From: an uncultured Thermoplasmata archaeon
GTDB lineage: Archaea > Thermoplasmatota > Thermoplasmata > Lutacidiplasmatales > UBA184
Direction: 5' to 3'
Assembly (NCBI GenBank): GCA_963787975.1
Contig: CAWBEU010000008.1
Span: forward strand, 221,583 to 285,582
DNA length: 64,000 bases
Shown in pieces: positions 18,531 through 63,619 of this stretch. The notes beneath the pieces were generated by a model that worked only from the letters and a program-made list of their open reading frames with translations, was not told the DNA's origin and did not search any database. Each line of letters begins with the position of its first letter. The first letter of the stretch is position 1. The translations under genes and the position numbers were made by a program.

Positions 18531-18845
18531 TGCTAGGCTAGACCGGGGGGTTGGGCGTCCCCTTTTACACCGAAACCGTCCTTAGCGGGGGTGACAGGCA
18601 GGAGCGACGCGCACCGAGGGAATCCGTCTCGTTTGTCTTCGTCGACGCTCTGTTCCACTGGGCCGCGGGCACCGCGACGAGCGCTCGGAGGAGCGCCCTA
18701 GCGGTTACCCATCACGGGAACCGGGTCAGGTCCTGACGGGAGCAGCCTTACCGTGACCCGACGACGCTGGTGGGGCGACGGGGCTGAGGAGCGAACGGGG
18801 TCTCCGGATTCTTTCGATGCGCGGCCACCCTGCTGGCCTAGCACC
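18531..18845 (+). ncRNA. Signal recognition particle RNA (archaeal 7S)
   Basis: Helix-8-like motif CCGGGUCAGGUCCUGACGGGAGCAGCC at ~18720-18748. The 5' GCUAGGC (18532-18538) pairs with the 3' GCCUAGC (18836-18842). ~315 nt in a coding gap. Ends are approximate. Confidence 0.8.
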
Positions 18846-22326: not shown

Positions 22327-23661
22327 ATGGCCGACGTTCCGGCAGGCAGCCCCTCGGTGGAGACCGACATGGCCCAGACGGTGGAGCGGGTCCGGGACGC
22401 GGTTCGGCGGCATACCACCCGGTTCGAGCGCGCAATCCCGTTGATCGCGAGCGAGAACCTGCTCTCGCCGTACGCGAAGGAGCTGTTGATCAGCGATTTT
22501 CATTCTCGGTATGCCGAAGGTCTCCCGGGGGAGCGCTACTACGAGGGGAACGAGCAGGTCGATGAGGTGGAGACGCTCTGTCTCGACCTCGCAAAGCGGC
22601 TGTTCCGCTGTTCATTCGCCGACGTGCGTCCGATCTCCGGCACGGTAGCGAACTTCGCGGTGCTCAAGGCGATGGCCGAGCCCGGCGACCTCGTCGGCAC
22701 GTGCCGGCTCGCCGATGGCGCCCACATCTCGAGCGCGTCGTTCGGCGCCTTCGGCGTCCGGGGCGTGAAACCGGTCTACTATGCGTGGGACACCGAGCGG
22801 ATGACCATCGACGTCGCGCGCACGAAGGAGATCCTGCGCGCCGTGCGCCCCAAGCTTTGCCTGTTCGGCCTCTCGCTGTTCCTCTTCCCGCTGCCCGTCC
22901 AGGAGCTCTCCTCCACTCTCCAAGACATCGGCGCGCGTGGATGGTACGACGGCGCACACGTGCTCGGCCTGATCGCGGGCGGCGAGTTCCAGGACCCGCT
23001 CCACGAGGGATGTGTGGTGATCTCCGCGTCCACCCACAAGACGCTCCCCGGACCGCAGCACGGAATCCTGCTCGGGAACACCGACGACCCGGAGATCCCG
23101 AAGCGGCTCGCGTCGGCCGCGTTCCCCGGCGTCACGAGCAACCATCACCTCCACACGATGGCCGCGTTGGCCGTGAGCCTCGCCGAGCATCTCGCCTTCG
23201 GCCGGGCGTATGCGCGGCAGGTGATCGCGAACGCAAAGGCCCTGGGCGCGGCATTGCACGAGCGCGGTTTTGACGTGCTCGGGGAGAATCTCGGCTTCAC
23301 CGCCTCCCATACCCTGGCCGTTCGGGTCGCCCGGGAAGGGGGTGGGGAGGAGGTGGCCCGGCGGCTGGCCGCGGCGGGGATCATCACGAACAAGAACCTC
23401 TTGCCCGGCGACACGAGCTCGAAGCACCCCGGCGGGATCCGGCTGGGCACGCCGGAGGTGACCCGGGTGGGCATGACCGAAAAGGAGATGCTCCGGATCG
23501 CGGAGCTGATGGACGACCTTTTGCATCGCGGGAAGGCCCCCGAGTCGGTCGCGGCCGACGTCGCCGCGTTCAAGTCCGGTTTCACCGGCCTACGGTACTG
23601 CTTCGGCGCCGGTGAGGCGGCCTACCGGTACTACGACCTCGTCGGTCACCCGCCGCCCTGA
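22327..23661 (+). CDS. glyA: Serine hydroxymethyltransferase
   Basis: 444 aa. Motifs LIASENLLSPYAKELL, RYAEGLPGERYYEGNEQVDEVE, VVISASTHKTLPGPQHG (PLP lysine). An alternative start is the Met at 22369. Confidence 0.9.
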   Translation: MADVPAGSPSVETDMAQTVERVRDAVRRHTTRFERAIPLIASENLLSPYAKELLISDFHSRYAEGLPGERYYEGNEQVDEVETLCLDLAKRLFRCSFADVRPISGTVANFAVLKAMAEPGDLVGTCRLADGAHISSASFGAFGVRGVKPVYYAWDTERMTIDVARTKEILRAVRPKLCLFGLSLFLFPLPVQELSSTLQDIGARGWYDGAHVLGLIAGGEFQDPLHEGCVVISASTHKTLPGPQHGILLGNTDDPEIPKRLASAAFPGVTSNHHLHTMAALAVSLAEHLAFGRAYARQVIANAKALGAALHERGFDVLGENLGFTASHTLAVRVAREGGGEEVARRLAAAGIITNKNLLPGDTSSKHPGGIRLGTPEVTRVGMTEKEMLRIAELMDDLLHRGKAPESVAADVAAFKSGFTGLRYCFGAGEAAYRYYDLVGHPPP

Positions 23662-25826
23662 TGGCCCCGGGGCTCCGTCGTCGGGTCCTCTTCCTCGAGC
23701 GGGTCCGGCGTCGCCGGCAGCATCGTCGGGTCGAACTGGATGGTCGGCGCAGATGGGCGGGGCGCCGCGCGACGGTACACCAGACGGCGGTCGGGGGCGC
23801 GGCTCGGGATCAGGCTGCCGTCGGCCACCAGGGCGGCGATCCATTCGGCCCATTCCTCGGGCGCCACCGGCGGACCGGTCCAGCCCGCCACGAGCTCGTC
23901 GGGTCGACGGGGAGTAACGGGGTCGGCTTGCGCGAGCAGGTGGTCTCGGCCCCGGGCCATGCGCTCGAGCTCGTTCTCCTCGACCCGATCCCCGCGCGTG
24001 TCGGTGGCCGGGGTCCTACCCCGCCGTCGAACATCCCACGCGACCAGGAGAACGCCGACGGCGAGTGCGGTCAGGAAGCCGAAGAGGATCCGGCCCGAGG
24101 TCCCCGCGAAGACGGAACCGCTCGGGGTTCCCGGGCGGACGGGCGTGGAGGTGACGTTGAGTCGGAACACCACCGTGGTCTCGCTACCGAGGGCGTCCCG
24201 CAGCGTCACGGTCAGGTTGGCGGAGCCCGTTGACGAGGGTTGATACGGGCAGGTCACCGGGCCGTCGGAATCGACGTAGTCAGGGCAGGAAAAGACGGCG
24301 GACCGGGAGGAGTTCCACCATGCGCTGATCGGCAATGCCCCTCCCGCGACGACCACGGACAGTGCCGCGGTCTCGTTGGCGAAGAGCGTGATCGATGAGC
24401 TCCCGTTGACCCGTGCCGTGAGGATCGGCACAACCACTATGGCGGCGGACGACGAGACGTTCTCGCCGAACCGATCGACGACGGAGGCCCGGAGCTCGTA
24501 CTCGCCCGGCGCAGGAAAGGTCACGTCGAAGATCCACGCCGTTGAGTTCTGGGAGAGGCAAGTTAGGGTCCGGACGCCGTTCACGGTGAGGCAGGCCGGA
24601 CCGTAGGGGGCGCTCCCGGTTCCGTTAGTCACGTTCAATGCGAGCTCAATCGTTCGGTTCGGGTAGGTAACGGGCGTCGGCGCGGTGAGGGTCACCTGCT
24701 CGACGGGATGCACTGACACCGGGCCGAGGGAGAGCTGGCCGTCGGAGTAGCCGTTCGAGATCGAGGCGGTCGGGAGGGCGGTGCCCGCCGCGGGATAGGC
24801 TGCCTGGACCTGACAGGTGAGGTTGGCCGTACCGTTCGGGAGGCGGGTGCTGTCGCAGGAGCCGCTCACCGAGCCCGCGCCGAGGCCCGGATCGATCGTG
24901 GCCGAGTAGGCGTATCCGGCGGCCCCGGAGCCCATCACGTAAAATGTGACCGGCGCGCCCGGGTCCACCGGCGTGGGCGACGCGGTGGCGGAGAGAACTC
25001 TCGTGGAAACGGGTAAGAGGGAGAGCACAGCGGATTGGGCCGACTCCGTCGTCGTACCGTAGGTGGCCGCGACGGTCACCGAGAGGGATCCGGTCCAGCC
25101 GCTGTCCGTGCCTACGACCGTGACATTGGGTCCGGTCTGTGACCAGATGCCCCATTGGAGCCCGGCCAGGTTGAAGACGTACGTCAGCGGACCGGGTGCG
25201 GGATTGCCCACGGAGTTCCACGCCGTGGCCGATAGATCGACGTGCGCGTTGGTGCTGACGACCTCGGTGCCGGTTACGTTCAGTCTCGCTTCCGAGAGCT
25301 CGGCGTACCAGCCGATCGCTCCCGGGCTCGTACCACCCCCTGGATCGCGCTCAAAAAATCCTGCCGGTGCGCCGGAGGTGGCGTAGCCGAGGGGCCCGAA
25401 GGGGCCCGAATACAGGGTGCACACGGCCGGAATGCACCGATCGGAAGGGACCGGCAGCGCGATGGAAAAATTCCCACCGGCCGCGGTGGTTCCGTAGGCC
25501 ACGGTCGGCACGCAGCTCTCGGCCGTCGAGTTGTTAACTTTTTGGACCTCGGTGTAGAAGTAATCGGCCCGGACTGACACGCCGACGACCGAAGGAAGAG
25601 GCGTCGAGTTGCCGACGAGGATCAGGGTTCCGGTCGCGGCTGTCGGAACCGCGGCACCGAGACACGCCCCGCTAACGGTGGGTGTGGGGCGCGCGTTCGT
25701 CGGGGGCCCGACCGGAACGGCGGCCAGTCCGACGGCCGACAAGAGCAGTGCCAAGGCCGTGGCCACCAGGATCCGGGCGGCCGCGGGCGCGAGGCGGGCC
25801 ACCGGAAGGGGGGTCGAGCGTCGCAT
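23646..25826 (-). CDS. Large sequon-rich surface glycoprotein-like protein (Ig/PKD-like repeats), TM anchor and ~125-aa cytoplasmic tail
   Basis: 726 aa. Signal ARILVATALALLLSAVGLAAV. More than 15 N-x-S/T sequons. TM ILFGFLTALAVGVLLVAW, then an acidic tail. The 3' end overlaps glyA by 16 nt (convergent). Confidence 0.75.
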   Translation of the reverse strand: MRRSTPLPVARLAPAAARILVATALALLLSAVGLAAVPVGPPTNARPTPTVSGACLGAAVPTAATGTLILVGNSTPLPSVVGVSVRADYFYTEVQKVNNSTAESCVPTVAYGTTAAGGNFSIALPVPSDRCIPAVCTLYSGPFGPLGYATSGAPAGFFERDPGGGTSPGAIGWYAELSEARLNVTGTEVVSTNAHVDLSATAWNSVGNPAPGPLTYVFNLAGLQWGIWSQTGPNVTVVGTDSGWTGSLSVTVAATYGTTTESAQSAVLSLLPVSTRVLSATASPTPVDPGAPVTFYVMGSGAAGYAYSATIDPGLGAGSVSGSCDSTRLPNGTANLTCQVQAAYPAAGTALPTASISNGYSDGQLSLGPVSVHPVEQVTLTAPTPVTYPNRTIELALNVTNGTGSAPYGPACLTVNGVRTLTCLSQNSTAWIFDVTFPAPGEYELRASVVDRFGENVSSSAAIVVVPILTARVNGSSSITLFANETAALSVVVAGGALPISAWWNSSRSAVFSCPDYVDSDGPVTCPYQPSSTGSANLTVTLRDALGSETTVVFRLNVTSTPVRPGTPSGSVFAGTSGRILFGFLTALAVGVLLVAWDVRRRGRTPATDTRGDRVEENELERMARGRDHLLAQADPVTPRRPDELVAGWTGPPVAPEEWAEWIAALVADGSLIPSRAPDRRLVYRRAAPRPSAPTIQFDPTMLPATPDPLEEEDPTTEPRGHQGGG

Positions 25827-25948: not shown

Positions 25949-26494
25949 CTAGGGTCCCGCCGGCGGCCGGGGGAGTCGTCCGAGCGGCACGCGGTCCCGG
26001 ACGAGGTGCCGAGCGCCCGTCGGGAGAAGCTCGCTCTCCTTGAGAACGATCTCCGATACCGTCGTCCGAGTCCAGACCCGGGCGGCGTTTTCCGGTTCGG
26101 CCAGGAACCGGCTCGCCCATGCGGTGTCTCGTGGGGACCGGGTCCGGGCGAGGGTGAGATGCGGAACGAAAGGTCGGTGTTCCGTGGGAAATCCTCGGGA
26201 GGACAGGGCGGCGCGCAACCGGTCCACCAACGAGCGGACCGCCACGGTTCCGTCGCCCACGCCGGCCCAGACCACGCGAGGTCGCTGGGTCGTGGGGAAC
26301 GCTCCGATCCCGCGGACCTCGAGGTCGAACGGACCGGCTCCACCGGCCACCTCCGCCATCGCCTCGACCACGGCCGGGATCCGGTCGACCGGGAGCTCCT
26401 CGAAGAAATGGAGCGTGAGGTGGTCTTCCGGCCGGAGTCCGACCGGGAGTGGTCCGTCGAGCGCGGGCAGGTCGATGGCCACGAACGCTCGCAT
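25949..26494 (-). CDS. thpR: RNA 2',3'-cyclic phosphodiesterase (2H phosphoesterase, LigT/ThpR)
   Basis: 181 aa with two H-x-T-x motifs, HLTLHF and HLTLAR. Confidence 0.85.
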   Translation of the reverse strand: MRAFVAIDLPALDGPLPVGLRPEDHLTLHFFEELPVDRIPAVVEAMAEVAGGAGPFDLEVRGIGAFPTTQRPRVVWAGVGDGTVAVRSLVDRLRAALSSRGFPTEHRPFVPHLTLARTRSPRDTAWASRFLAEPENAARVWTRTTVSEIVLKESELLPTGARHLVRDRVPLGRLPRPPAGP

Positions 26495-26529: not shown

Positions 26530-29201
26530 TCAGGTTACGGAGGGCTCGGGGGCGAGGTCCCGGACCGTCCGGAGTGTCCAGACCGTGGCCCGGGTCCGCG
26601 GAACGTTGACCCGGGTCAGGAACCGGCGGACCGACCGGGCCCGGCCGGCGTCGCCCACGAGACAGAGTAGGAACGCCCCGGCGTCGCGGGCCTTGGCCCA
26701 ATCCCGCTCGATCCGTTCTCGCCGCGTGGCTCCCGAGACCTCCGCCTCGACGTGCACGTCCCGGCCCCCGAAGGCGCGCCACATCCACTCCCCCTGGCGG
26801 CGGTCCAGATAGGTGGCGAGGTCCGCGGGCCCCCAGCGCCGGTGGTCCCGGGGCAGCACCGTGACGCGGCCGTCCGGAAGCCGGGTGTCGAACCGACCCT
26901 GCCGCAGAATCTCGAGCCGCTCGTGGTGCCGGGCGAAGATGCGCAGGGCCGCTACCAGGAGGGCTCGATGCTCGGCGCTCTCCGGCCGCGCGCCGGTACG
27001 GGCGGTCAGCCCGACCCGGTCGGCGCCGGCGGGCGACAGGAGCAGCTCTTCTCCGTTCGCGCGGACCCATCCGCGTCGTCCGAGCGTCTCGAGGGTCTGG
27101 AGGCCGATGACGGGGTCGAACGCGTCGCCCTCGTCGAGCCATCGGAAGAGCCGGGGGCGTGTCGTGATCCCTCCCTCAGCCTCGAGGGCCACCAGGCCGA
27201 GCAGGAGATCCTCTTCCAGGGAATCGGAGGATAGGGCCGCGGCTCCGTCCCGGTACGGAACCGGAGAACCGTAGCCGGCGGTCGTTCGACGCACCAATTC
27301 CTGCCAGCCCAGGAGGTCCGAGGGCGGAGCGAGCGGCATCCCGACGAGTCGACGGTCGGCGCGGGAGCCGGTGGAGCTCACCATCGCCCAGCCCGGTGGA
27401 AGGGACGGCAGGATATTTTGCGCGGTGTCGGGACCGAGACCGGCCCACGCGCCGGTCGCCACCGCCGACGCCCACGGTACCCGGAAGAGGTAGACGGTGC
27501 CGGCCGCACCGGTGAGAGCGTCCCTCAGCTCCGGCGCCAGCCGAGCCGGGTACTGCGTCGCGACGACGAGTCCGAGGCCGAATTTCCGGCCCTCCGCGAC
27601 GATCTCGCTCAACAGCCGGGCGGGGAACAGGTGCGCCTCATCCAGGACGAACAGCACCCGGAGGTCGTCGGCCGGCTCCTCCCGCGCGGCGCGCCGGACC
27701 TCCTCCAGGTAGATCCGGGTCAAGAGGAGCGTTACGGCGAAAGTGACGCCCTCCGGCCCGAGCTCGCCCATCGGCAACCGCCAGATCACCGATTCCCCCG
27801 CGCGGAGACGGGGCCCCAGCTCCACTGACCGTTCGCGCGGGGCGAGGAGGGCGGTAAGCAGGGGCGAGCCCACGACCTTGGCCACCCGAGAGGCCGCCGG
27901 CCACAGGAACTCCGGTTGCCGGCGAACTATTCCGTCCAACTCTTCGAGGAACTGTACGATCTCCGGCCGCCCCGTGGTGAGCCGGGCCGCGTCGCGGCGC
28001 CGGGGGTCCGTGAGCAGGCTCCACAGGTCGACGAGGTCGCCGCCCTGTTCCTGGACGACGTGGAGAAACGTCTCGAACAGCCGTTCGAGCCGGAATCCCC
28101 AGAATGTCTCTCCGTTCTCGGTCGATAGTCGCTTGAAGGCGGCCACGAGGTGCGCGACGAGCGCCTCTCGGTCGGCCAGCGGGACCGGGCCGAAGACCGA
28201 CAGGCCCGGGATCGCTGCCGGAGTGCCCACGACGTCGATGCCGAGCAATCGGTCCCGGGTCTCGGGGGAAGCCCGGCCACGACCCGGGGGGCCAGGTCGC
28301 CGTGCACGTCGAAGAGGACCACCGAGCGGCGCTCCGCGAGCGCCTCCCGAGCCAGGTGGGCGAGGGCGGCGGTCTTGCCGGAACCCGAGGCGCCCAACAC
28401 CACCGCATGCCGGAGGCGAGGCTCGTCGTGAAGGTCGGGGCCGAGGGGGAACGGAGCCGCCAGGCCCACCAGTTCTCGGCGGAGCCGGTGCGGTCGGGCG
28501 CCTCCCCATCGGGGTCGAGCGCCCGAAGTCCATGCGCGTCGTAGGCGGCCCCAAGGGCGAATCTCCCGCACGACGAGTTCGACGCCCGGCTCCGGGTTCG
28601 CTACGCGGCGTAGGTGTACCTCGAGCGCTGACTCGAGCGCCCGGAGCGCTTCGGGTGTGGTCGCGGCGATGCGCCCCCGGACGGTCATCCAGACGTTCCC
28701 GTCGGAGCCGACGGTCCAGTGCGTCTGGGCACCTACCCAATAAGCAAGGCCCGACGGGAGGAGGTCGCAAGCGGGGGCCAGGAGATCCTTGGGAGGCGCG
28801 CGGTCGGCTCGACCCTCGGGTCGGCCCCCCGGGGAACGGGAAGGCGCAGGATCCTCGTTCGCATCGGCCGGGACTTGCGCTCGCGCGTCCAGGTCGATAC
28901 GAACCCAGGTCTCCACGAGTCCGGGGGGTGGCCCGCAGGCCCGGTCGCAGAGATTCCGCGACCAGTGGAGGGGAATCCCCTCGCGGAGGGTGTCCATCGC
29001 AAGCACGAGCGGGTCGGAGAAGGGAAGGAGGCGCACCTCCCCCCGCTGGCCGTCCCACCATTGCTCGATGAGCAACGCGTCCCCGGGGGAGGCCGAACGG
29101 AGGTGCTCGGCCACCCGGGACAGAAAAACGCCGAGCCAGTGCGGACCGGTCTGTGGCTCGACTCGGAGGGCCGGAATCGCCGTCGAGGGAGCCGGTGTCA
29201 C
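26530..29201 (-). CDS. FtsK/HerA/TraD-type P-loop ATPase fused to wHTH and restriction-endonuclease-like C-terminus (~890 aa; one frameshift)
   Basis: The N-part lies in the frame of ORF 27927..29384, starting at GTG 29201 (GTGA overlap with the upstream gene): ...HAVVLGASGSGKTAALAHL...VVLFDVHGDLAPRVVAGLP. The C-part lies in the frame of ORF 26530..29061: PETRDRLLGIDVVG...LRVLFVLDEAHLF...GRKFGLGLVVATQ...wHTH...ESAEHRALL..LPDGRV..DVHVEAEVSG. The frames join if the G5 run at 28264-28268 (plus strand) were G6. Confidence 0.75.
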
Positions 29202-29551
29202 GCGCCGCTCCGGCCCCGTCGGTCCAGTGTCCGCACCCGAGCGGCCACCGCCGGGAGTTGGTTGAGTCGGGCGAACTCGAGCAGGGCAGGGGTAGACGCT
29301 ACCCGCCGTACCGCCCGATGACGGTCCCAGAGCCGGACGACCCACACGAGACGCAGGTCCGGAAGTCGGTACAGCCGGGCCCATGGACGGTACGGTCCGG
29401 CGATCGGCACGCGCAGTCGACCGACGTACTCGACCCGGGGATCCGTGTCGAGCTCCTCAGGAATCGGGTAGGCGGTCTCGTCGAGCCAGCGAAGGGGTTC
29501 GGCGGGAACGGGTTGTCTCGATGCCGTTGAGAGGGCCACAGTGGGCTCCAT
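29198..29551 (-). CDS. Hypothetical protein (117 aa) translationally coupled to the ATPase gene
   Basis: ATG 29551 is preceded by GGAGGGAGG. Sequence begins MEPTVALSTASRQPVPAEPLRWLDETAYPIPEELD. Its stop overlaps the GTG of the next gene. No motif recognised. Confidence 0.5.
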   Translation of the reverse strand: MEPTVALSTASRQPVPAEPLRWLDETAYPIPEELDTDPRVEYVGRLRVPIAGPYRPWARLYRLPDLRLVWVVRLWDRHRAVRRVASTPALLEFARLNQLPAVAARVRTLDRRGRSGA

Positions 29552-30294
29552 TTTGCACACCTGGACCTCCCTCCGCCGGGCGGACCCACCGGAGAAGGGA
29601 GGGGGCGGTGGGTCCGGCGACATCGTCGGACGAGGACGTACCTCGCGCGACGGGAACGGCTCCGAAGGGGATCCGCGGCGGCAACGGGACCGCTGCCACG
29701 CCCCTCGATCGCCGGGGCCGGTCGAGAACGACCGGGAAGAGCTGCGCCGCCTCGTCCTCGGAGCGGGGGTCCGCCGGCGCCCGGTCCCGGTAGCCGGTCG
29801 GCTCCTCACGCTCCGGCGGTCGAGCCCGCCCAGGGCCTCGAACCGGACGCTAGCGGCGCAGGGTTGGAGCGCGGGTGACGACGGGGATCCGGGACGGGGT
29901 TCTCCCCGATCCGGAGGGGCGTCGAGCGACGCTCAATTCTCGGGTGCCGAGACCAGCGAGCATGCGACGGGGCAACGTTCCCAACGAACAGAACGCGGCG
30001 GGGTCGATGCGTGGGCGTGGCCAGGGACCGTACATGACGAACGGGAGAGAATCTCGTCGGGGGGTCCCATGGTTTCGGGTCTCGACGGAGGGTGAAGAAT
30101 GCCTTACTCACGGAGGGGCGCTGAAAAGTACAAGGGTGAAGGTCCCCCCCGCACGCGAGAGACGCGGTGCCGTCTCTCCTTTGCGATGTAGGGCGGGACC
30201 CTCGGGGTGGTGTGCAGAAGGAGCATCCGGGCCCGGGCTATTTGAGGCACCGAGGGAGGGGGACTGAAACACCCTCCCGAGAGGGCGTTCCGTC

Positions 30295-43920: not shown

Positions 43921-44245
43921 GATAAAGACGCGCCGGGATTCCGAATGGTCGAGGTGCGTACGCCCATCCCCGGGGAGGGTGCGGGGAGAGGACACGGCTG
44001 AATTGTTCAAACCTCCCGTATGACGGCCATGGGGGGGACCGGACCCTCCCCTGCGGGAGATCCCCCCATTACACAACCCCGTCGTTAGAAATCGTTCGAA
44101 GGATCAACGGTTTGCCCTCTCGTCAGAAAACGAGCCCGTTACGAACAGCGAGCGAGCGGTAGCGGGGCGAATCGAGGGAGTAGCCGGCCGACATTACGGC
44201 CCCTTAATATCTCGAAACATTCACCCTCGAGCGGAGCGGTCGCCC

Positions 44246-44857
44246 ATGAGGAAAGTGCTGATTCTGATGTTCATGACCCTTGACGGTGTCGCCGAGTATC
44301 CCGACTACGTCGAGGACGCCGATTCGAACTCTGCTGGCGAGGGACCACCGATGTGGGACTCCCTAATGGATTCAATAGATACCCTGCTCCTGGGTCGTCG
44401 AACCTACGAAAAGTGGGCGGGGTTCTGGCCTGGAAAGAAGAGCGACTCGTCCGCGACGGCGTGGATGAAGAAGTTCTCCCGCTTCGCCGACGAGGCGGAG
44501 AAGGTCGTTTTTTCGAAAACGCTGAAGTCGGCGGATTGGCCAAACTCAAGAATTGTGCGGGGCGACATCGCACAGGAGGTCGCCCGCCTCAAGGCCCAGC
44601 CAGGAAAGGACATGACCGTGGGCGGGCCCCGACTTGCTCAGTCGTTCCTCGCCGCGGATCTGGCGGATGAGCTCCTCCTCGATATTTTCCCCAGCATCGT
44701 GGGTCGGGGGAAGCCACTCTTCCGGGTCGTCGGTGACCCCGATCACGACGAAGACCTCGTCCCACTTGGGGCCCCGGGCCGGCACGACTTCAAGCTGCTC
44801 GAGTGTAAGCCACTCAAGGACGGAACGGCGTTCCTCCACTACCGGCGGAGCAAGTAG
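44246..44857 (+). CDS. RibD C-terminal domain / dihydrofolate-reductase-like family protein
   Basis: Motifs MRKVLILMFMTLDGV, LLLGRRTYEKWAGFWP, KVVFSKTL, DMTVGGPRLAQSFLAADLADELLLDIFPSIVGRGKPLF. Confidence 0.8.
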   Translation: MRKVLILMFMTLDGVAEYPDYVEDADSNSAGEGPPMWDSLMDSIDTLLLGRRTYEKWAGFWPGKKSDSSATAWMKKFSRFADEAEKVVFSKTLKSADWPNSRIVRGDIAQEVARLKAQPGKDMTVGGPRLAQSFLAADLADELLLDIFPSIVGRGKPLFRVVGDPDHDEDLVPLGAPGRHDFKLLECKPLKDGTAFLHYRRSK

Positions 44858-45097
44858 ATCGGAAAGGGCCGCCGATCCAATTACCGGTTTCGCGAGAAAC
44901 GCTGCTGGCGGGGTGCAACCCGGGTTGCATCTTGGGCGACGCGGGCGCCGCGGAGGGGCTCTTGATTCCTCAAGACTCGAGACCCGGGGCTTTGTCGACT
45001 GTCCCCTCCGAGGATGGGTGGGCAACCTTTGCCAAGGGACCCGATGTGGAGCCCACCGGCACGGGACCGCTCCAAGGTCCGGCAGCCTCAGCTTCCG

Positions 45098-46024
45098 TCA
45101 GGGGTTCCGAGGCGAGAAGGGCGAACCACCGGACCGTAGGTAGGCAACATAGGCGAGGAGCAGTTCCTTCGCCACCTGGGTCATTTGACCCAGTGATGCA
45201 GACGCCTGCCTGGCTCGTTCCAACTGGGTGTCGTAGTGAGCCACGTCGTAGTCGTTTCGGACGTCGGTGAGCGGTTGAACCTTCGACTTGTAGTAGTCCG
45301 CGCCGAGACCCAGTCGACGTCCGCGCTCATCGGTGGTGTCCCCTTTGGTTCGGTCACCAATGACCGCCGTCGCGGCCTTCCAGTAGTTGAGAAACGACTC
45401 GGAGTCGAACAGAACCGCTTGAATGGATTTGGGCGACTCGTCATCCCACGCACGTGAAACCGAGCTGTCCCTGAGGATCGCGCCGTGACGATAGTAGGTC
45501 AGCGCCTTCTCGAGTGTAGGATCCCGGAGGTTCGCAAGATCCACGCTCTCTCGGACCTTCTCCGACAGCTCACGGAGGTTGTACGCAGAGACTGTCCCGC
45601 CGATCTGCGCCGAACGAAGATGCTTCTGAGCGCCTTCGAGCTGCTGAAGCGATACGAGCTCGAAGTCGACCGGAGTATCGGTAAGCAGCGTCAGAGGTCT
45701 GCAAATCGCAATAGTGATGTCCCGCGCGAGATCCCACGGCGAATTCTTCACCGGGTCGTCCGAGTCGAACTCAACCGTCAGGTAGTTGTCCGTTAGGGCC
45801 GCACGCGCTCCGCGGACCTGTGATTCGACCTTGACCGCATCCTTGTCTTCCCGGTAGCGAGAAATGGTTCCCCAGCTCGTTTTCTCAAGGGTCGTGCTAT
45901 CGATCGAAGGGAAGGAGACAGTGGTCTCCCTTCCCGAGGGTTCTGCCGGAAAGACGATGGCGTCCTCGCCGGGAAGACCGAAGAGGTGGGTTGGGTGGAG
46001 AAAGAAAACGGCTCTGTACCTCAC
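45098..46024 (-). CDS. Hypothetical protein (308 aa) with C-terminal HEPN-like Rx6H motif
   Basis: Single long ORF in a visibly lower-GC stretch. RNDYDVAH is encoded at 45236-45259, inside a helical-looking C-terminal third. Confidence 0.55.
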   Translation of the reverse strand: MRYRAVFFLHPTHLFGLPGEDAIVFPAEPSGRETTVSFPSIDSTTLEKTSWGTISRYREDKDAVKVESQVRGARAALTDNYLTVEFDSDDPVKNSPWDLARDITIAICRPLTLLTDTPVDFELVSLQQLEGAQKHLRSAQIGGTVSAYNLRELSEKVRESVDLANLRDPTLEKALTYYRHGAILRDSSVSRAWDDESPKSIQAVLFDSESFLNYWKAATAVIGDRTKGDTTDERGRRLGLGADYYKSKVQPLTDVRNDYDVAHYDTQLERARQASASLGQMTQVAKELLLAYVAYLRSGGSPFSPRNP

Positions 46025-46301
46025 AGCTTAAGGCAGCTCCAACTAGCCAAGCGGCTCGCGTACTAAACCCATCTCCGCGGAAGGCGCGAAGCGACCTCGG
46101 GCGGGCGCGATCCGCCGGCAGCTGAGACGACGTGGCCATCGACCACTTCATGATCGAGAAAAAGAGGACCCGTTCTCAACAGGTGCGAAGATTAGTTTGG
46201 AACCGCGGAACGTCGGACCAGGCCCGACCGTCACGTGAAATAGAGCTGCGAGGTATGATGTCGAGGTCGTCGTCGGGGCTCGATGCGTTCCCGGACCTGA
46301 T

Positions 46302-46529
46302 TTGTCAATGGGATGGGGCCCAAGACAATCTGGGGGCGGGGAGTGGGTCAAGGAGACTCAGGCTGAGAAGGCCGACGATTACGTCCCTCCCATTCCTGAT
46401 AACCCGCCCCCGGAGGCGTCGACCGCCGACGTGCACCGGCGCAAGACCCTTTCCATCCGCCTCGTCGTGGTCGTCGCCCTCGTCGCGACCGCGGTTCTCG
46501 CAATCCTGCTGCTCGCAGGGATCCTCTGA
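46302..46529 (+). CDS. Possible small tail-anchored membrane protein (75 aa)
   Basis: Polar N-terminus followed by one hydrophobic helix (LSIRLVVVVALVATAVLAILLLAGIL). No other support. Confidence 0.3.
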   Translation: MSMGWGPRQSGGGEWVKETQAEKADDYVPPIPDNPPPEASTADVHRRKTLSIRLVVVVALVATAVLAILLLAGIL

Positions 46530-46570
46530 AACGGACGCGTTTCGGGTGATCAGAAGGGGACCGTTCTGCC

Positions 46571-46873
46571 TCAGGACCTCGCGTCCCCGGCGACGCGGGC
46601 GAGCACGCGGTCGAATAGTTGGTCCCGAGTGCCTTCCGTAGGCAGACCGTTCTCGCCGGATACTTCGACCAGCTCACGGTGGTCAAGGTACTCGACCGCT
46701 TCGGCGGGGTCAAAGTTCTCGAGGGCCAGGACCCGCTCGACGAGCTCTGCCTTCGTGCCGCCCGTCGGCTCTTCGTGTTCGTCACACAGCTCCCGGAGCT
46801 CTTCCGGGAGCAGGTATCGATCCAGAATATGACGGAGCAGCTTCTCGTCCATGAACCCGGGTAGCCCTCTCAC
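46571..46873 (-). CDS. Small acidic protein with two SAP-like helix-extended-helix motifs
   Basis: LRELCDEHEEPTGGTKAELVERVL and ELVEVSGENGLPTEGTRDQLFDRVL fit the SAP pattern (L..L....gL...G.K.eLi.Rl). The start may be the Met at 46852. Confidence 0.5.
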   Translation of the reverse strand: MRGLPGFMDEKLLRHILDRYLLPEELRELCDEHEEPTGGTKAELVERVLALENFDPAEAVEYLDHRELVEVSGENGLPTEGTRDQLFDRVLARVAGDARS

Positions 46874-47097
46874 GCCTTTTCGACTATCCTCGTTTCGGTC
46901 GGCGGGGCCGTTCCTGGAGGTCTCGGGGCCGGCCTCAAAACCAGCAGTTCAGTCACAACTTGTGGGACGCTTGGGGCCTCACTTCATCCTCCGAGGGGGG
47001 AATTGGGTCCCGTCAGAAACGGGCCCATTGATGGAAGGCGCTCGGCCGATGGCGGGACCTCAATTAGCGCAGGGGACCGAAGAGCTTCGGTGTGGTC

Positions 47098-48000
47098 CTA
47101 CCTTGTCGGCCTCGGCGCCGATGCTCGATCGACCGCAGCGAACTCCTCTTCGCTGAGGTCCAACGAGAGAGCGCCTGCGTTCTCGCGAACGTGGTCGGGC
47201 CTGGTCGCTCCCGGGATCGGGATTACATGATGGTCTCGCTTCAAAAGCCAGGCGAGCGCCACCTGGGCAGTAGTTGCGTTGTGAGCCCCCGCCACCTGTC
47301 GTAGCGTGCCAGCAAGGGCCGACCGATCAGAACCTCGGGCCGAGTCAGAGACGACCGCTCCTCCGCCGATCGGCCGGTAGGCGACCAGTGCCACGTCCAT
47401 CTGGCGGCAGGCGTCGAGGACTCCATCGGTCTCGGGAGTGCGATGCAGGAGGCTATACTGAACCTCGTTGGCCGCGAGCGGTATGCCTTCGCGAGCCAGC
47501 GCGTCGGCCGCCTCGCGCATCTGCGCCACGTTGCAGTTGCTGACTCCCACGGCCCGGATCTTCCCGGCCTTGACGGACTTCGCCATCTGCCTCATCCACG
47601 TGTCCATACCGAGCATGGAGTAGGGGAAGTGCAGGTAGTACAGGTCGAGCGAGCCGCGGCCCAGTCGCTTCAGCGTCTTCTCCAGCGCCGAGACGAACCG
47701 GGCCGGGGTGACGCGATAGGGGAGCGGGGCGAACTTGCTGGCCACGAGGATCGGCCGGCCATCTGCTCGGGCAGCCTGGCCTATGGCTGACTCCGATTGG
47801 CCGAAGCCGTAGACCTCGGCGGTGTCGAAGAAGCCTACCCCTGCATCAATCGCCGCAGCCAACGTGTCCCTGAGGCGGGCCTGCTTCGACGCGTCGGTAT
47901 TCCACCGGTTAGTGCCGACTCCAAGCGCTGGCACCTTGATGCCCGATCTGCCAAGCGGCCGTTCGGTTGCTGATTGGAAGTCTGATGTCTGTTCGCCCAT
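47098..48000 (-). CDS. Aldo/keto reductase
   Basis: ATG 48000 (MGEQTSDF). Motifs LGRSGIKVPALGVGT, FFDTAEVYGFGQSE, LDLYYLHFP, GKIRAVGVSN, NEVQYSLL. Confidence 0.85.
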   Translation of the reverse strand: MGEQTSDFQSATERPLGRSGIKVPALGVGTNRWNTDASKQARLRDTLAAAIDAGVGFFDTAEVYGFGQSESAIGQAARADGRPILVASKFAPLPYRVTPARFVSALEKTLKRLGRGSLDLYYLHFPYSMLGMDTWMRQMAKSVKAGKIRAVGVSNCNVAQMREAADALAREGIPLAANEVQYSLLHRTPETDGVLDACRQMDVALVAYRPIGGGAVVSDSARGSDRSALAGTLRQVAGAHNATTAQVALAWLLKRDHHVIPIPGATRPDHVRENAGALSLDLSEEEFAAVDRASAPRPTR

Positions 48001-48045
48001 CGTTGATGTCCTCCGCTGTCGGGACCCGATTAAGTGGTCCACTCT

Positions 48046-48255
48046 CTATGAAAGCTGTAGCTGGTTGTGCTCTTCGGTCCAGGCGCTCGAGCACTCTGCA
48101 GGGCGGAGCATGCCAAGGGCACTGTGGAGCCTTGCATAGTTGTACTCGTCTCGCCGGTCCTCAACAAGGACCTTGGCTTCGAGCAGTGAGCCGAACTGAC
48201 AGATGTTCAATAGCTCGCCCAGGAGCCTGCCGTTAGAGTTTCGTGTTCGTCGCAC
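48046..48255 (-). mobile_element. Remnant of a DDE (rve/IS3-IS481-like) transposase C-terminus
   Basis: NGRLLGELLNICQFGSLLEAKVLVEDRRDEYNYARLHSALGMLRPAE matches the conserved tail of integrase-core transposases (..NG.lR.E.Ln...F.sl.EA...iE.WR..YN..RPHSaLG..tP.E). No catalytic core lies upstream. Confidence 0.6.
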
Positions 48256-48401
48256 GCGACCTTGATGCGGAAGCGCGCGGCCGATGACCCGACCGCAATC
48301 AGCGTCCGCGATCGGGAACCGCCTATGGGTGGGAAACCCACCCCTTTCCGTACGTCCCGCGGCCTGATTGTCCGCGGTAGGGATTTCCCAAGAAGTTCAG
48401 G

Positions 48402-48486
48402 TGCGGGGAGAGGGATTTGAACCCACGAACTCCTACGAGACCAGACCCTGAATCTGGCGCCTTTGACCAAGCTGGGCGATCCCCGC
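48402..48486 (-). tRNA. tRNA-Leu (anticodon CAG), long variable arm, no encoded CCA
   Basis: Folded by hand: GCGGGGA/UCCCCGC acceptor, anticodon stem CCAGA/UCUGG, loop UUCAGGG, variable arm UCUCGUAGGAGUUC, T-arm GUGGG-UUCAAAU-CCCUC (one U-U mismatch). A TATA-like TTTCATATCC lies ~25 nt upstream. Confidence 0.85.
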
Positions 48487-48575
48487 GCGACCTCCGCGTA
48501 TCGTTGACGGATATGAAAGCGACGCTAGAGGCGAGCCGTCTTCTTCCCACGGCGAGACGGCACGGGAAGGGCGAC

Positions 48576-49184
48576 TCACATCTCCTTTTCGAAATCCAGT
48601 ATCGTCGCGAACATTGAGGAGAAGAGATGGTTGGACCCGGGATTAAGCTCGAGCTCCCATACATCCCGGACGGCGAGGATCTTGTGCCGTACATGTCCCA
48701 TCTCGCGCCCATCGGGGCCCACAATCTCGTACGTTCGTCGAAGGATGCTCCCCTTGGTGGTCATGAGGGGCTGGCCTGCCGGGGCCACCCACGTGGCCGT
48801 TAGCCCCCCCATGAGGCTGCGCTTCAGCTCGATCATCCCTACCGACGTTCCGAGGAACGGGTCGACCACTTGGAACTGGGAATGATTCCCGCCCCCGGTC
48901 TTTCGGATCTCGAATCCCACGTTGCCAGCGGGGTCCTTCACCTTGTAGGTGTAGTTCACGCTCCGAGCCGCATACCGCCCGAGGTAGCCTCCGATGGCCC
49001 CTTCCAACATCTTGCCCTGCATGTTCTGGCCCGAGTCGAGTCCGATGCGGCAGAGGACCGTTTGACTCGGGTCCATCACATCGTAGTTCTTCCCGAAGGA
49101 AAGGATCTGCATTTTCATCACCAAGCTCGGCTGGTTGGACAGCGTTTGCATGATGTTCTGCGCCACGGGGTTGAGTCCGGCCAT
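48576..49184 (-). CDS. LURP-one-related/DUF567 (tubby-C/scramblase-like fold) family protein
   Basis: 202 aa. Pattern ...KMQILSFGKNYDVMDP..., ...HKILAVRDVWELELNPG... resembles DUF567 repeats. Call is by eye. Confidence 0.5.
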   Translation of the reverse strand: MAGLNPVAQNIMQTLSNQPSLVMKMQILSFGKNYDVMDPSQTVLCRIGLDSGQNMQGKMLEGAIGGYLGRYAARSVNYTYKVKDPAGNVGFEIRKTGGGNHSQFQVVDPFLGTSVGMIELKRSLMGGLTATWVAPAGQPLMTTKGSILRRTYEIVGPDGREMGHVRHKILAVRDVWELELNPGSNHLFSSMFATILDFEKEM

Positions 49185-49292
49185 GCGAGTGGAACCGGCC
49201 CGGCCTACATGTGTCTTCTGAGCCGTCGGACCAGCCAGGAAACGGGCTCCGTGTAGGGAAATAGGCCCAACGGGAGCCGGGTGGCGGAGGGC

Positions 49293-50111
49293 CTATGAGC
49301 GCACGGCGGCGACGGGTGCGGTCGCTTTCTTCGCAGCGTCCAAGACCTGCACCGCCTCCCGGACGGTGGCCTTCTCGTGGACGATCGCTCGGATGGCCTT
49401 CATCATCGCGACGGGGTGGTCGGATTGCCAGATGTTGCGGCCCATATCCACGCCGACGGCCCCTTTCTCGATGGCACCGGCACAGAGCTCGAGAACGGAT
49501 TGGTCCGTGTCGAGCTTCGGGCCGCCGGCGACGACCAACGGCACCGGACAGCCTTCTGCGACCTTCTCGAAATTCTCGCAGTAGTAGGTCTTGACCAAGT
49601 GGGCGCCGAGCTCGGCGGATACCCGACACGCGAGGGAGAGGTACCGGGCGTCGCGCTTTTCGAGCTCCTTCCCCACCGCCGTGATCGCCATGACCGGCAT
49701 GCCGAGGGCCTCCCCCTCATCGACGAGTTCGGCGAGGGAGACGAGGGATTGGTGCTCGTGCGGGGCCCCGACAAACACGGAGAGGGCCACGGCCGACACG
49801 TTGAGCCGAAGCGCCTCCTCCATCGAGGTGGTGATCGCCTCGTCACTGAGATCCTCCTTGAGCACGGTGACGCCGCCGGAAACACGCAGGACGACGGGCA
49901 CGTCGGTGGTCGCGGGGATGGAGCTTCGGAGGATCCCTCGAGTGACGGCGATGGCATCGGCGAAGGGGAGCAACGGGGCCAGGGTCGACCGGGGGTTCTC
50001 GATCCGCCGGGTCGGTCCCATGAAGTAGCCGTGGTCAGCGGCGAGCATCACCGTGTGGCCGGTGCGAGGCTTGATGAAGCGGGCCATCCGGTTCTGTAGT
50101 CCCCAGTCCAT
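49293..50111 (-). CDS. Class I aldolase of the DhnA/LsrF/ADH-synthase family (COG1830)
   Basis: ATG 50111 (MDWGLQNRMARFIKPRTGHTVMLAADHGYFMGP). Motifs VVLRVSGG, AHLVKTYY (Schiff-base Lys region), VVAGGPK, GVDMGRNIWQ. Confidence 0.8.
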   Translation of the reverse strand: MDWGLQNRMARFIKPRTGHTVMLAADHGYFMGPTRRIENPRSTLAPLLPFADAIAVTRGILRSSIPATTDVPVVLRVSGGVTVLKEDLSDEAITTSMEEALRLNVSAVALSVFVGAPHEHQSLVSLAELVDEGEALGMPVMAITAVGKELEKRDARYLSLACRVSAELGAHLVKTYYCENFEKVAEGCPVPLVVAGGPKLDTDQSVLELCAGAIEKGAVGVDMGRNIWQSDHPVAMMKAIRAIVHEKATVREAVQVLDAAKKATAPVAAVRS

Positions 50112-50210
50112 CGTGGTCCCCGCTGCCGATAGTCGGGACGATTCCTTAAAGCCGTTTCCGAGGAGCACGATGTGGTCCGTTCCCGGCCGGGCCGTCGATG
50201 ATTCCGTCGG

Positions 50211-50714
50211 TTAAGTGGGTCGGGCCGAGAGCGGAACCCGCCGGTCTTCCTTCACCCGGTTCAGCACGACCTGGGTACTGGTCCGCTCCACATAGGGGTC
50301 CTGGAGGGTGTGTTTGACGAACCGGTCCAGGTCTCGCCGGTCCCGGAACCGTCCGATGATGAGGGCATCGAAATCCCCGGTAACATCGTAGATGGCGTAG
50401 GCCCGGGGGTCCTTGGCCAGCCGCTCCTCCACCTCCCGGAGCTTTCCCTTCAGGATGCGGATCCCGATCGTCGCCCAGAGATCCCATCCGAGCAGCTCGT
50501 CATCGAGGAGCGGAATGTATCCGCGGACAATCCCGAGCTTCTCGAGTCGCTCGAGACGATGGCTGATCGTCGTGGGGGAGACGTGGAGACGCCGGGCGAT
50601 TTCCCGATCGCTCCGCCGGGCATTGATGTTGAGCTCCTGCAGCAGCGAGCGGTCGAGGTCATCCACGGCGGACGATTGACCCATGGAATACCCCATTGAG
50701 GTTACTATGTCCAT
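50211..50714 (-). CDS. Lrp/AsnC-family transcriptional regulator
   Basis: Motifs LDRSLLQELNINARRSDREIARRLHVSPTTISHRLERLEKLGIVRGY, followed by a RAM/ACT-like domain. Divergent from glnA. The start may be 50696 or 50684. Confidence 0.85.
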   Translation of the reverse strand: MDIVTSMGYSMGQSSAVDDLDRSLLQELNINARRSDREIARRLHVSPTTISHRLERLEKLGIVRGYIPLLDDELLGWDLWATIGIRILKGKLREVEERLAKDPRAYAIYDVTGDFDALIIGRFRDRRDLDRFVKHTLQDPYVERTSTQVVLNRVKEDRRVPLSARPT

Positions 50715-50842
50715 TCAATATTTCCCTCTTGGGATGATTGTCCAGTTCCATTGGCGCAGGGTTGATGTAGCGAAGCGCGGTCGGAGGGGGCGAGGACGGC
50801 ATGTCGGGGGCGGTCGGGTCGAGTGGCGGGGCGGGAACGACG

Positions 50843-58088: not shown

Positions 58089-59392
58089 TCAACCGACGCG
58101 TTCCCACCGTTCGAGCTTTTGCACCTGGCCCAGGGTGCTGCCGCGTCGGATCTCTTCGCGGACCCGGTTCTCGTGCTCGAGCACGTCCAACGACCGATTC
58201 GCGATCTCCTGGGCCCGCTCGCGGGGCACGACAACGAGCCCCGACAGGTCTCCCACGATCCAGTCCCCCGGCCGGACCCGCTGGCCGCCGACGGTCACCT
58301 CGACCCCAATCTCGCCATGGCCTTTGGGCTCACCGGCATTGGGCGAGATGGACCGGCTGAACACCGGGAAACCGAGCTCGAGTATCGTGTCAATGTCCCG
58401 GGCCGCGCCGTCGATCACTACCCCCGAGAGCTTCCGCATGTGGGCACTCCACGAAGCGAGCTCCCCCCACACCGCCGTCGTGCTGCTTCCCGCGTCCACC
58501 ACGAGCACATCGCCGGGTCCGGCCCGGTCGATCGCCTCCACCGGTTTCGCCCAGTCCCCATCCCGGGTGACGACGGTGACGGCCGGTCCGGCCATCCGGA
58601 AGTTGGGATCCTTGTGGTGGGCGAGCAGTCCGTGCAGCGCCCCTTTTCTCTGGAGAGCATCGCTGATGTTCGGAGTGGAGACCTTCAGGAACGCTTGGCG
58701 GATGCCCGCCTCACCGACGCGATGGAACAGCTCGGTCGCGACCTCCGTCTGGGTGGTCATGGCCTGGCGAATCCGACGCGTCGCCTCGGTGACGTTGGCG
58801 CTCTTCGTGATCGCTCCACCGACGATCAGGATCAACGCGCCGGCCCGGGTCGCCTGCGCTACGGTCTCGGAGTTGAGACCCCCGGCAACCGAAACCGGGA
58901 TCGGCGACGCACGGGCCAGCGCTTCGAGCGCGTCGAACGGGGTTCTTCCGGCCATCTGCATGTCGATGCCGATGTGCCAGCAGACCGCTCCGGCGCCCAG
59001 CTCCGCGGAGCGCTTCGCCCGAGCCACGGGGTCCGCAACATTCAGCAAGTCGACGACGATTTCGGCGCCGTACCTTCTCCGGCTCGGACCGCGTCCGCGA
59101 TCGTATCGTCGTCGGCGGCCCCGAGGACCGTTACAAGGTCCGCTCCGGCCTTGGCCGCGATCTCGACCTCAAACGCGCCGGTGTCCATCACCTTCAGATC
59201 GGCCACGATTCGATGGTTCGGGAACGCACGTTTCAGCTCCCGTACGGCGTCGAGCCCCTCGCTCTTGATGAGAGGGGTTCCGGCTTCGACCCAGTCCGCG
59301 CCTCCCTCGACGGCCTCCTTGGCGGCCTGAAGGGCCCGGGAAAGGTTCTCGAAATCGAGCGCTACCTGGAGAACCGGGCGGTCGAGCTTCAC
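58089..59392 (-). CDS. Bifunctional 3-hexulose-6-phosphate synthase / RraA-like (ribonuclease-regulator-like) fusion; one frameshift
   Basis: ORF 59042..59392 (GTG start) reads [14 protein letters not shown]...[13 protein letters not shown] 58089..59048 continues the HPS barrel (IGIDMQMAG...VSVAGGLN...LIVGGAITK), then the RraA-like part (ISDALQRKG...VVVDAGSS...GELAS...VIDGAARD). The frames join (..AGE[13 protein letters not shown]..) with one missing base near 59073-59078. Confidence 0.8.
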
Positions 59393-62494: not shown

Positions 62495-62495
62495 G

Positions 62496-63607: not shown

Positions 63608-63619
63608 CCTTTTCTCCCG

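Follow-up and report, generated by a model that had tools for sequence, protein, structure and literature searches.

The window analyzed here is a stretch of 64,000 nt from assembly GCA_963787975.1 (CAWBEU010000008.1, 221,583 to 285,582), and all positions refer to it. Its minus strand carries a gene for a large P-loop ATPase that ends in a nuclease-like module; a small gene lies directly upstream of it and thpR directly downstream. The original prediction, made from the sequence alone, had proposed these genes as a candidate undescribed ATPase-nuclease module of the kind found in anti-mobile-element systems. The genes, and the parts of the ATPase, are as follows.

29198..29551, minus strand: small partner gene, 117 amino acids, whose stop codon overlaps the start of the ATPase gene (GTGA).
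26530..29201, minus strand: whole ATPase-winged-helix-nuclease-like gene, 890 amino acids after the addition of one C.
28437..29201, minus strand: N-terminal alpha/beta domain in the AlphaFold2 model, residues 1-255, of which 108-139 form a disordered loop.
28264..28268, minus strand: frameshift site, a C5 homopolymer 1 nt short of the C6 of relatives.
27253..28436, minus strand: P-loop motor, residues 256-650 (Pfam, PDB profiles and Foldseek).
26998..27240, minus strand: winged-helix-like segment, residues 655-735, with an isoelectric point (pI) of 4.4; three helices and a beta hairpin in the AlphaFold2 model.
26533..26997, minus strand: C-terminal nuclease-like domain, residues 736-890, pI 11.5.
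25949..26494, minus strand: thpR/LigT 2H phosphoesterase gene (Pfam LigT_PEase, 1.7e-21, in two stretches).

The two halves of the ATPase gene sit in different minus-strand frames in the open reading frame (ORF) listing (27927..29384 and 26530..29061). When repairs at 28264-28268 were tested on the DNA, the frame was restored by an insertion and not by a deletion: one additional C in the C5 run gives a single ORF of 2673 nt, from a GTG at 29201 to the stop at 26530. A relative at locus L088 that is 93% identical has C6 at this point (CTTCCCCCCG, where the window has CTTCCCCCG), and the repaired junction (...VVAGLPPETRDRLLGIDVV...) aligns with homologues without a gap, which confirms the earlier proposal of a gene of ~890 amino acids interrupted by one homopolymer error. 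This GTG and the TGA that ends the small gene overlap as GTGA, and homologue calls begin at the equivalent GTG or ATG.

A genuine frameshift would mean that the gene was recently inactivated in the genome from which the window comes. This would agree with the deposited record, which annotates only the C-terminal 572 amino acids of the ATPase (P0019), and with the disruption of a VirB4-like gene elsewhere in the window. However, the lesion is the loss of one base within a homopolymer, and we found no further defect in 2.67 kb. The ratio of nonsynonymous to synonymous substitution rates (dN/dS, calculated throughout between the window and L088) is 0.22 for the whole gene, a value that reflects purifying selection, and it stays below 0.4 on either side of the lesion (0.35 upstream of the shift and 0.15 downstream). 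The VirB4-like gene, with its compensating shifts, and a frameshifted housekeeping gene for an HPS-RraA fusion are both intact in relatives, and such breakage is the signature of assembly indels. Because these two genes of the window are also broken by indels, comparison with the relatives makes an assembly error the more likely explanation, and recent inactivation is improbable.

A search of a 5.8-billion-protein collection showed that the ATPase belongs to a family of more than 130 members, nearly all of 845-900 amino acids, and every named member comes from a Thermoplasmata metagenome-assembled genome (MAG). When metagenomes were scanned with one protein, P0250, no match was obtained; an alignment-based scan gave matches. 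Residue conservation was assessed in an alignment of 99 members, on which we also built an AlphaFold2 model of the 890-amino-acid protein (predicted local distance difference test score [pLDDT] 85.9, predicted template modeling score [pTM] 0.79). The model has four parts, in agreement with the architecture previously read from the sequence: an N-terminal part, a TraD/HerA-type motor, a winged helix, and a tail that bears a PD-(D/E)xK-like motif.

The motor contains a Walker A motif (GASGSGKT, 28371..28394, minus strand), a Walker B motif (LDEAH), and the motifs GRKFG and ATQ. The motifs named in the original prediction are present and invariant in the 99-member alignment, in which the invariant motor residues are G270, G273, G275, and K276 of Walker A, D298, H300, and G301, D521 and E522 of Walker B, R539-G542, and Q550. 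Between Walker A and Walker B the model places a helical block (~342-467), and alignments with TrwB cover ~420 columns. TrwB_AAD_bind, DUF87, AAA_22, and HerA_C scored above their Pfam cut-offs, each restricted to the surroundings of the P-loop; TrwB_AAD_bind, for instance, reached 33.3 bits against a cut-off of 20.5 over residues 264-306 only. FtsK_SpoIIIE remained under its cut-off (13.9 versus 24 bits), T4SS-DNA_transf was also below cut-off, and TraG-D_C did not match the window protein. The NCBIfam equivalog models for CedD, HerA, TraD, and CedB scored 24-35 bits against cut-offs of 500-970. A PDB profile search of the large protein matched HerA and TrwB. The best Foldseek match in the PDB was HerA (4d2i, 5.8e-12), and matches were also obtained with TrwB (1e9s, 3e-10, target-normalized TM-score [TMt] ~0.59) and with VirB4/TrwK (8rtd, 3.5e-10, 872 columns). 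No transmembrane segment was detected, as judged by the absence of a hydrophobic 19-mer at a threshold of 1.6, either in this protein or in most of its relatives. The large protein is thus a soluble, anchor-less P-loop ATPase of the FtsK/HerA/type IV coupling protein (T4CP) class, with Walker A and Walker B intact.

In a BFVD fold search with the full-length model, the strongest matches were large uncharacterised Bacillus-phage ATPases (gp156 of phage G, E 1.4e-22, 845 columns); those of phages JL and Slash were also among the BFVD matches that surpassed every PDB match of this model. No system in PADLOC-DB was matched, and the best models there, mad8 (41 bits, 3.5e-11) and HerA (40 bits), covered the ATPase core only; the literature on MADS offered no useful description of mad8.

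The N-terminal domain has no match in Pfam or NCBIfam. The winged-helix segment gained weak support from searches in which several family members matched the HVO_A0261_N and HemN_C winged helix-turn-helix models, and the best PDB sequence match of the C-terminal part, also weak, was the winged helix-turn-helix protein SSO2273 (E 0.74). In Pfam, NCBIfam, PADLOC, and the PDB profiles, neither the family nor its C-terminal module is named, in keeping with the claim that the family is undescribed.

In the 99-member alignment conservation is highest in the C-terminal domain, where the conserved residues are E741, H745, R746, Q768, G769, P776, D777, W808, G813, E819, E821, V822, R827, and K837. Its predicted elements follow one another in the order alpha1-beta1-beta2-(three helices)-beta3-alpha2-beta4-alpha3-beta5. 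D777 (codon 26872..26874) lies at the start of beta2, before strand 778-780, E819-A-E821 (codons 26740..26748) lies in beta3 (strand 816-820), and K837 lies on the next helix. This order fits the alpha-beta-beta-beta-alpha-beta core of PD-(D/E)xK enzymes, with a Glu (E821) at the position of the motif Lys. BamHI likewise has a Glu at the Lys position of this motif. Searches with the C-terminal 236 residues found no nuclease family in Pfam, NCBIfam, or the PDB profiles. The sole nuclease among the fold matches was a phage "restriction endonuclease" at a nonsignificant E of 0.098, and the best 50 matches of the full-length Foldseek search were ATPases only. From the topology and the conserved acidic pattern we infer that the domain is plausibly a putative PD-(D/E)xK-type nuclease. 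The nuclease-like tail of the original prediction is therefore retained as far as its conserved putative catalytic residues and its predicted element order go, but it has no significant match to a nuclease.

The closest known relatives of this module are coupling proteins. We scored a profile of the C-module (residues 655-890) against 1.84 billion representatives and recovered ~90 clusters of the same family, followed by ~35 distant proteins of 750-3000 amino acids that bear TraG-D_C, TrwB_AAD_bind, or T4SS-DNA_transf domains. Those with names are haloarchaeal and are annotated as "TraG family" or "type IV secretory system conjugative DNA transfer family." The full-length profile aligns collinearly with the distant proteins across the motor (hmm 232-548) and again across the C-module (hmm 626-838), with E values of 1e-33 to 1e-49. 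All three of the distant proteins whose genomic context we looked up stand at the end of rows of DUF8186, TrbL_3, PrgI-TraC-like, VirB4-like, and DUF8128 genes. H745, Q768, D777, E819xE821, and K837 are preserved in the distant TraG-family proteins, although E741 is not, and this preservation suggests that the residues of the C-module are functional. These comparisons indicate that the motor and the C-module are collinearly homologous to haloarchaeal TraG-family coupling proteins. The original prediction had named homology to coupling proteins embedded in complete type IV secretion system (T4SS) loci as a finding that would speak against it; such homology was found for the motor and the C-module, but the N-domain is not common to the two groups.

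A review of "Archaea-type" T4CPs noted that they have acquired a new, uncharacterised C-terminal domain (PMC7434980). In two proteins of this type, from Halorhabdus tiamatea (WP_008526890) and Halovivax limisalsi (WP_247731769), the motor, the winged helix, and the nuclease-like module are collinear with those of the window protein, and the haloarchaeal TraG-family T4CPs resemble the window protein in having no transmembrane helix. They differ from it in their length (950-1400 amino acids or longer), in their N termini (with DUF8128 alongside or fused), in their long C-terminal extensions, and in their location within VirB4/TrbL/PrgI-type loci on plasmid-like or integrated elements. The family of the window protein, in contrast, has its own N-domain, a coupled small gene, a link to thpR, and the status of a vertically inherited chromosomal core gene. 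The full-length profile alignment showed that the N-domain is absent from the haloarchaeal relatives, and on the sequences compared it is family-specific. A relationship of either the N-domain or the small protein to DUF8128, which accompanies haloarchaeal T4CPs or is fused to them, was considered and rejected, as there is no similarity. The bacterial T4CPs TrwB, VirD4, and TraD resemble the window protein in the nucleotide-binding domain, with its predicted helical insertion (TMt ~0.59 over ~420 columns for TrwB-deltaN70). However, identity to them is only ~14-16%, the window protein lies outside any transfer operon, and it has an extra N-domain, a winged helix, and a nuclease-like domain.

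The small gene, which had been proposed to be coupled to the ATPase gene through the GTGA overlap, passed a linkage test: in 62 of 83 loci, or 62 of the ~76 that are informative, a profile located it immediately 5' of the ATPase. It is missing from ~15 loci that have sufficient upstream sequence. The overlap between the stop of the small gene and the start of the ATPase gene is 4 nt (RTGA) in 33 loci and 14-17 nt in 18. The dN/dS of the small gene is 0.09, and its product has 69 homologues, all within the same Thermoplasmata lineage; in these R47, G52, Y54, R55, P56, A58, R67, and A94 are invariant. Some homologues are called three codons longer, which would correspond to a GTG at 29560 in the window and possibly to a protein of 120 amino acids. 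The protein is strongly basic (pI 11.1), and its AlphaFold2 model (pLDDT 79) has a disordered N terminus, a four-stranded sheet, and two helices. It has no match in Pfam, NCBIfam, or PADLOC, and Foldseek found no significant PDB fold for the model (best E 0.48). The small ORF is a genuine conserved gene that is translationally coupled to the ATPase.

We scanned one genome per GTDB species and found relatives of the ATPase in 147 species genomes; the counts of synteny refer to the best 79 of these loci, all of which are in Thermoplasmata MAGs, including Candidatus Lutacidiplasma silvani. The order across the 79 loci is hxlR, a gap, the small ORF, the ATPase, thpR, and a 726-amino-acid membrane protein, with Fer2_4/DAO/DUF4147 genes upstream and SHMT downstream, and the order in the window is identical. 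Synteny of housekeeping genes (Fer2_4/DAO, DUF4147, hxlR ... SHMT) over ~15 kb persists even where the ATPases are only ~40% identical, and the identity of the flanking genes declines in parallel with that of the ATPase. The housekeeping neighborhood noticed earlier in the window is thus conserved in relatives, and the locus is a core, vertically inherited part of the chromosome in Lutacidiplasmatales-like Thermoplasmata rather than a variable island. In most loci the 726-amino-acid protein (23646..25826, minus strand) is kept 3' of thpR, with 28-69% identity; it has an N-terminal hydrophobic segment and a late transmembrane segment, and no Pfam match was found in its relatives.

These results do not favor the anti-mobile-element role first suggested for the locus. 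The ~15 kb of synteny is not island-like, no PADLOC system was matched, and no member of the ATPase family was found in IMG/VR. Because the locus is syntenic, vertically inherited, and under purifying selection, its interpretation as a defense island is unsupported. In HerA-NurA, HerA-DUF4297, HerA-Sir2, and TdpAB, too, a nuclease function accompanies a ring ATPase that belongs to this superclass. HerA complexes differ in that the nuclease is a separate subunit, whereas the nuclease-like part of the window protein is fused to the motor; the window locus has no NurA, Sir2, or DUF4297 partner and is core, not island; and the HerA equivalogs of NCBIfam give the window protein only 30-31 bits against cut-offs of 800-970.

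The same core distribution would suit a housekeeping motor for repair or chromosome maintenance that acts independently of secretion, either as a single-chain analogue of HerA-NurA or as an FtsK-like protein. HerA is the best PDB fold match, the protein is soluble, its nuclease-like domain is fused to the motor, and the motor-then-winged-helix layout parallels that of FtsK. In FtsK, the motor is followed by the gamma domain. Nevertheless, we consider a repair motor quite unlikely, given the HerA equivalog and FtsK_SpoIIIE scores under their cut-offs, the lack of Mre11, Rad50, or NurA neighbors at the loci examined, and the fact that the relatives of the C-module are coupling proteins of conjugation-type loci.

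The strongest and most widespread neighbor is thpR, which lies 35 nt downstream of the ATPase gene on the same strand, as originally stated, and directly 3' of the ATPase in 72 of the 79 loci. Both HxT motifs of ThpR are intact (HLTL and HLTL in the translation). The linkage persists in the divergent clades L089, L090, and L095 despite different flanking genes (the order in L095 is DnaJ, ATPase, ThpR, DAO), and it is missing in the Lutacidiplasma clade and in L093/L094. In one protein, P0112 (L004 1373..4522, 1049 amino acids, on a 7.3-kb metagenomic contig), the ATPase and ThpR are fused, which could be a true fusion or the result of a lost stop codon. Fusion to thpR as a general trait of the family was rejected, as it occurs in P0112 alone and the extensions of P0103 and P0211 are different.

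The persistence of this linkage, including in clades with different flanks, and the single natural fusion raise the question of a role in RNA metabolism, in which the C-domain would be an RNA endonuclease and ThpR would handle its 2',3'-cyclic-phosphate products or a cyclic nucleotide signal. The His and the Lys of the C-domain, invariant even in distant relatives, are compatible with such a role. However, the motor is of the DNA-translocase class, its relatives are DNA-transfer proteins, and the invariant acidic D..ExE set suggests metal-dependent cleavage. Metal-dependent cleavage yields 3'-OH ends and not cyclic phosphates. The linkage is also lost in two groups, and the fusion is known from one metagenomic contig, so that a role in RNA metabolism seems to us highly improbable.

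Two further features of the window were examined as possible partners of the ATPase.

60259..64000, minus strand: T4SS-like cluster, candidate functional partner, which runs off the window.
59423..60232, plus strand: N6_N4 DNA methyltransferase gene (Pfam, 2e-35), beside the T4SS-like cluster.

The cluster encodes a 165-amino-acid protein, a VirB4-like ATPase, small proteins with three and two transmembrane segments, and a protein with eight transmembrane segments whose gene leaves the window. An intact orthologue of the VirB4-like ATPase matches NCBIfam conju_CD1110 (9.6e-35) and VirB4_CagE (1.5e-14). The cluster begins 31 kb from the ATPase gene, close to the 32 kb given in the original prediction, which had correctly placed the two far apart. 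In L113 and L114 the same row of genes, from HPS-RraA to fibrillarin, is intact and lies 31 kb and ~46 kb from the ATPase genes, and comparison of these genomes shows the VirB4-like cluster to be conserved as a core locus. In L101 and in the Lutacidiplasma clade (L013, L054, L063, L065), the whole cluster adjoins the ATPase gene downstream, in convergent orientation, and stands in the place of thpR. As regards the integrity of these genes, the HPS (OMPdecase-family)-RraA fusion gene of the window (58089..59392, minus strand) lies in two frames, broken at ~59075, and is an intact ORF of 434 amino acids in L113 and L114; the VirB4-like gene of the window has an apparent compensating pair of frameshifts near 61990-62200.

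Homologues of the methyltransferase are 65-94% identical to it and lie on the same contigs as the ATPase homologues; this conservation exceeds that of the ATPase, and the methyltransferase of the window behaves like an orphan core methyltransferase. In four divergent loci, a methyltransferase is adjacent to the ATPase: the order in L089 and L090 is small ORF, ATPase, N6_N4 methyltransferase, ThpR, and in L093 and L094 the ATPase is followed by a methyltransferase that is 47% identical to that of the window, L094 having in addition a second methyltransferase and a SWIM protein. Because they are adjacent pairwise in different lineages, the ATPase, the methyltransferase, and the VirB4-like cluster can be chained by neighborhood.

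The recurrence of methyltransferase adjacency makes a restriction-like system the strongest rival to a role in DNA transfer. The translocase-nuclease would then cut unmodified DNA, and an N6/N4 methyltransferase, adjacent or elsewhere, would provide methylation-aware immunity or discrimination of self from non-self. The fusion of a translocase to a nuclease-like domain suits such systems, a homologous methyltransferase is core in every main-clade genome checked, and the weak PADLOC matches to mad8 and HerA models point in the same direction. We nonetheless regard a restriction-like system as unlikely: matches to known systems were confined to the generic ATPase core, synteny marks the locus as core and not variable, purifying selection acts on it at a rate like that of neighboring genes, no methyltransferase is linked to it in the main clade, no family member was found on viral contigs in IMG/VR, and the C-module is common to conjugative coupling proteins.

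The interpretation that we tentatively prefer, at a little short of an even chance, is that the large protein is a domesticated, anchor-less coupling ATPase with a built-in nuclease that serves a chromosomal type-IV-like DNA-transfer system. In this model, the protein would assemble on DNA as a ring translocase that is positioned by its winged helix, and the C-domain, as a metal-dependent nickase or nuclease of the PD-(D/E)xK type (in a BamHI-like ExE variant), would prepare the substrate. The enzyme would be the ATPase that couples and processes DNA in a domesticated chromosomal apparatus for DNA exchange, in a role comparable to that of Ced and Ted, and the small basic protein might be an adaptor or a nucleic-acid-binding partner.

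The Ced and Ted systems of Crenarchaeota (PMC9905601, PMC11868833) are similar in that they are chromosomal and vertically inherited and combine a VirB4-like ATPase with small and polytopic membrane proteins. They differ in lacking a coupling-type ATPase with a nuclease-like domain and in belonging to Crenarchaeota, not Thermoplasmata, and the CedB and CedD models give the window protein 24-35 bits against cut-offs of 600-700. The role proposed for the Thermoplasmata genes would be analogous to theirs.

Several observations weigh against a coupling ATPase. The VirB4-like cluster, itself a putative transfer apparatus, lies 31-46 kb from the ATPase in the window and in most genomes, and the co-occurrence of the two is based on few genomes. 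Their direct adjacency, found in one clade only, probably reflects a single rearrangement, and the genes are convergent and not co-transcribed. The adjacency of methyltransferases in four divergent loci suits a restriction-like logic equally well. As far as the sequence indicates, the protein has no transmembrane anchor, unlike bacterial T4CPs, and its nuclease fold is putative, as no nuclease matched it significantly by sequence or by fold. Finally, the model gives thpR no role.

Archaeal conjugative elements have no recognisable relaxases (PMC9905601), and because VirB4- and TraG-like ATPases are present in them without one, how DNA is nicked and fed into the archaeal conjugation channel is an open question. 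The family described here provides a concrete candidate for DNA processing in archaeal conjugation: a conserved, apparently catalytic nuclease-like module fused to coupling-type ATPases occurs both in haloarchaeal conjugation-type loci and in what may be a domesticated chromosomal version, which belongs to the core genes of a widespread order of uncultured soil archaea. The findings suggest a DNA-exchange system like Ced or Ted in Thermoplasmata. A broader proposal, that Lutacidiplasmatales-type Thermoplasmata possess a third chromosomal archaeal DNA-exchange system beside Ced and Ted and that the haloarchaeal module is the missing functional counterpart of the relaxase, is somewhat doubtful. 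Current family libraries contain neither the C-terminal module nor the small partner protein, and each could serve to define a new family.

Upstream of the small gene lies a gap of 743 bp. As had been noted for this stretch of ~740 bp, it contains no convincing gene, but it is not featureless and holds a conserved structured RNA. A 101-amino-acid ORF (29806..30111, minus strand) that is called in one relative occurs in the four closest loci only and is probably not coding; we rejected it because its protein identity is 56-60% where that of the DNA is 77-79%. The conserved elements of the gap are as follows.

30268..30289, minus strand: GC-rich hairpin AACGCCC...GGGTGTT followed by TTTC, just past the hxlR stop, with compensatory changes.
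30238..30246, minus strand: conserved TATA-like CTCAAATAG box, ~25 nt upstream of the structured RNA.
30126..30219, minus strand: structured RNA of ~94 nt, just downstream of hxlR, identified by covariation.

The RNA consists of a 12-bp lower stem, an internal loop, and a 6-bp upper stem whose GGCACCGC loop is invariant; it has a conserved 5' ACCACCCC, and a T-rich tract lies 3' of it. Compensatory changes occur in 17 of the 23 pairs of the RNA and the hairpin combined, and 93.4% of cells are paired, compared with 81.4% in shuffles (none of 500 reached the observed value) and at most 52% with slid partners. By its sequence the hairpin looks like a terminator, and the CTCAAATAG box may be an archaeal TATA box. 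No Rfam family matched in the gap. A covariance model of the RNA, built from 34 sequences, found one copy per locus in 45 further loci, each directly after hxlR, and no copy in clades without hxlR. We therefore rejected the RNA as a part of the ATPase module: it stays with hxlR when insertions part hxlR from the operon, and it is missing from divergent clades that retain the operon.

The GC content of the window (68-72%) is consistent with Lutacidiplasmatales (PMC9287336). It falls to 0.61-0.64 in 44000..52000, around a tRNA-Leu(CAG) gene (48400..48486, minus strand), compared with 0.68 elsewhere, and this may mark an integrated element or a segment of different composition. The window also contains, in confirmation that its DNA is archaeal, an archaeal signal recognition particle (SRP) RNA at 18531..18843 on the plus strand (Rfam RF01857, 148.8 bits).

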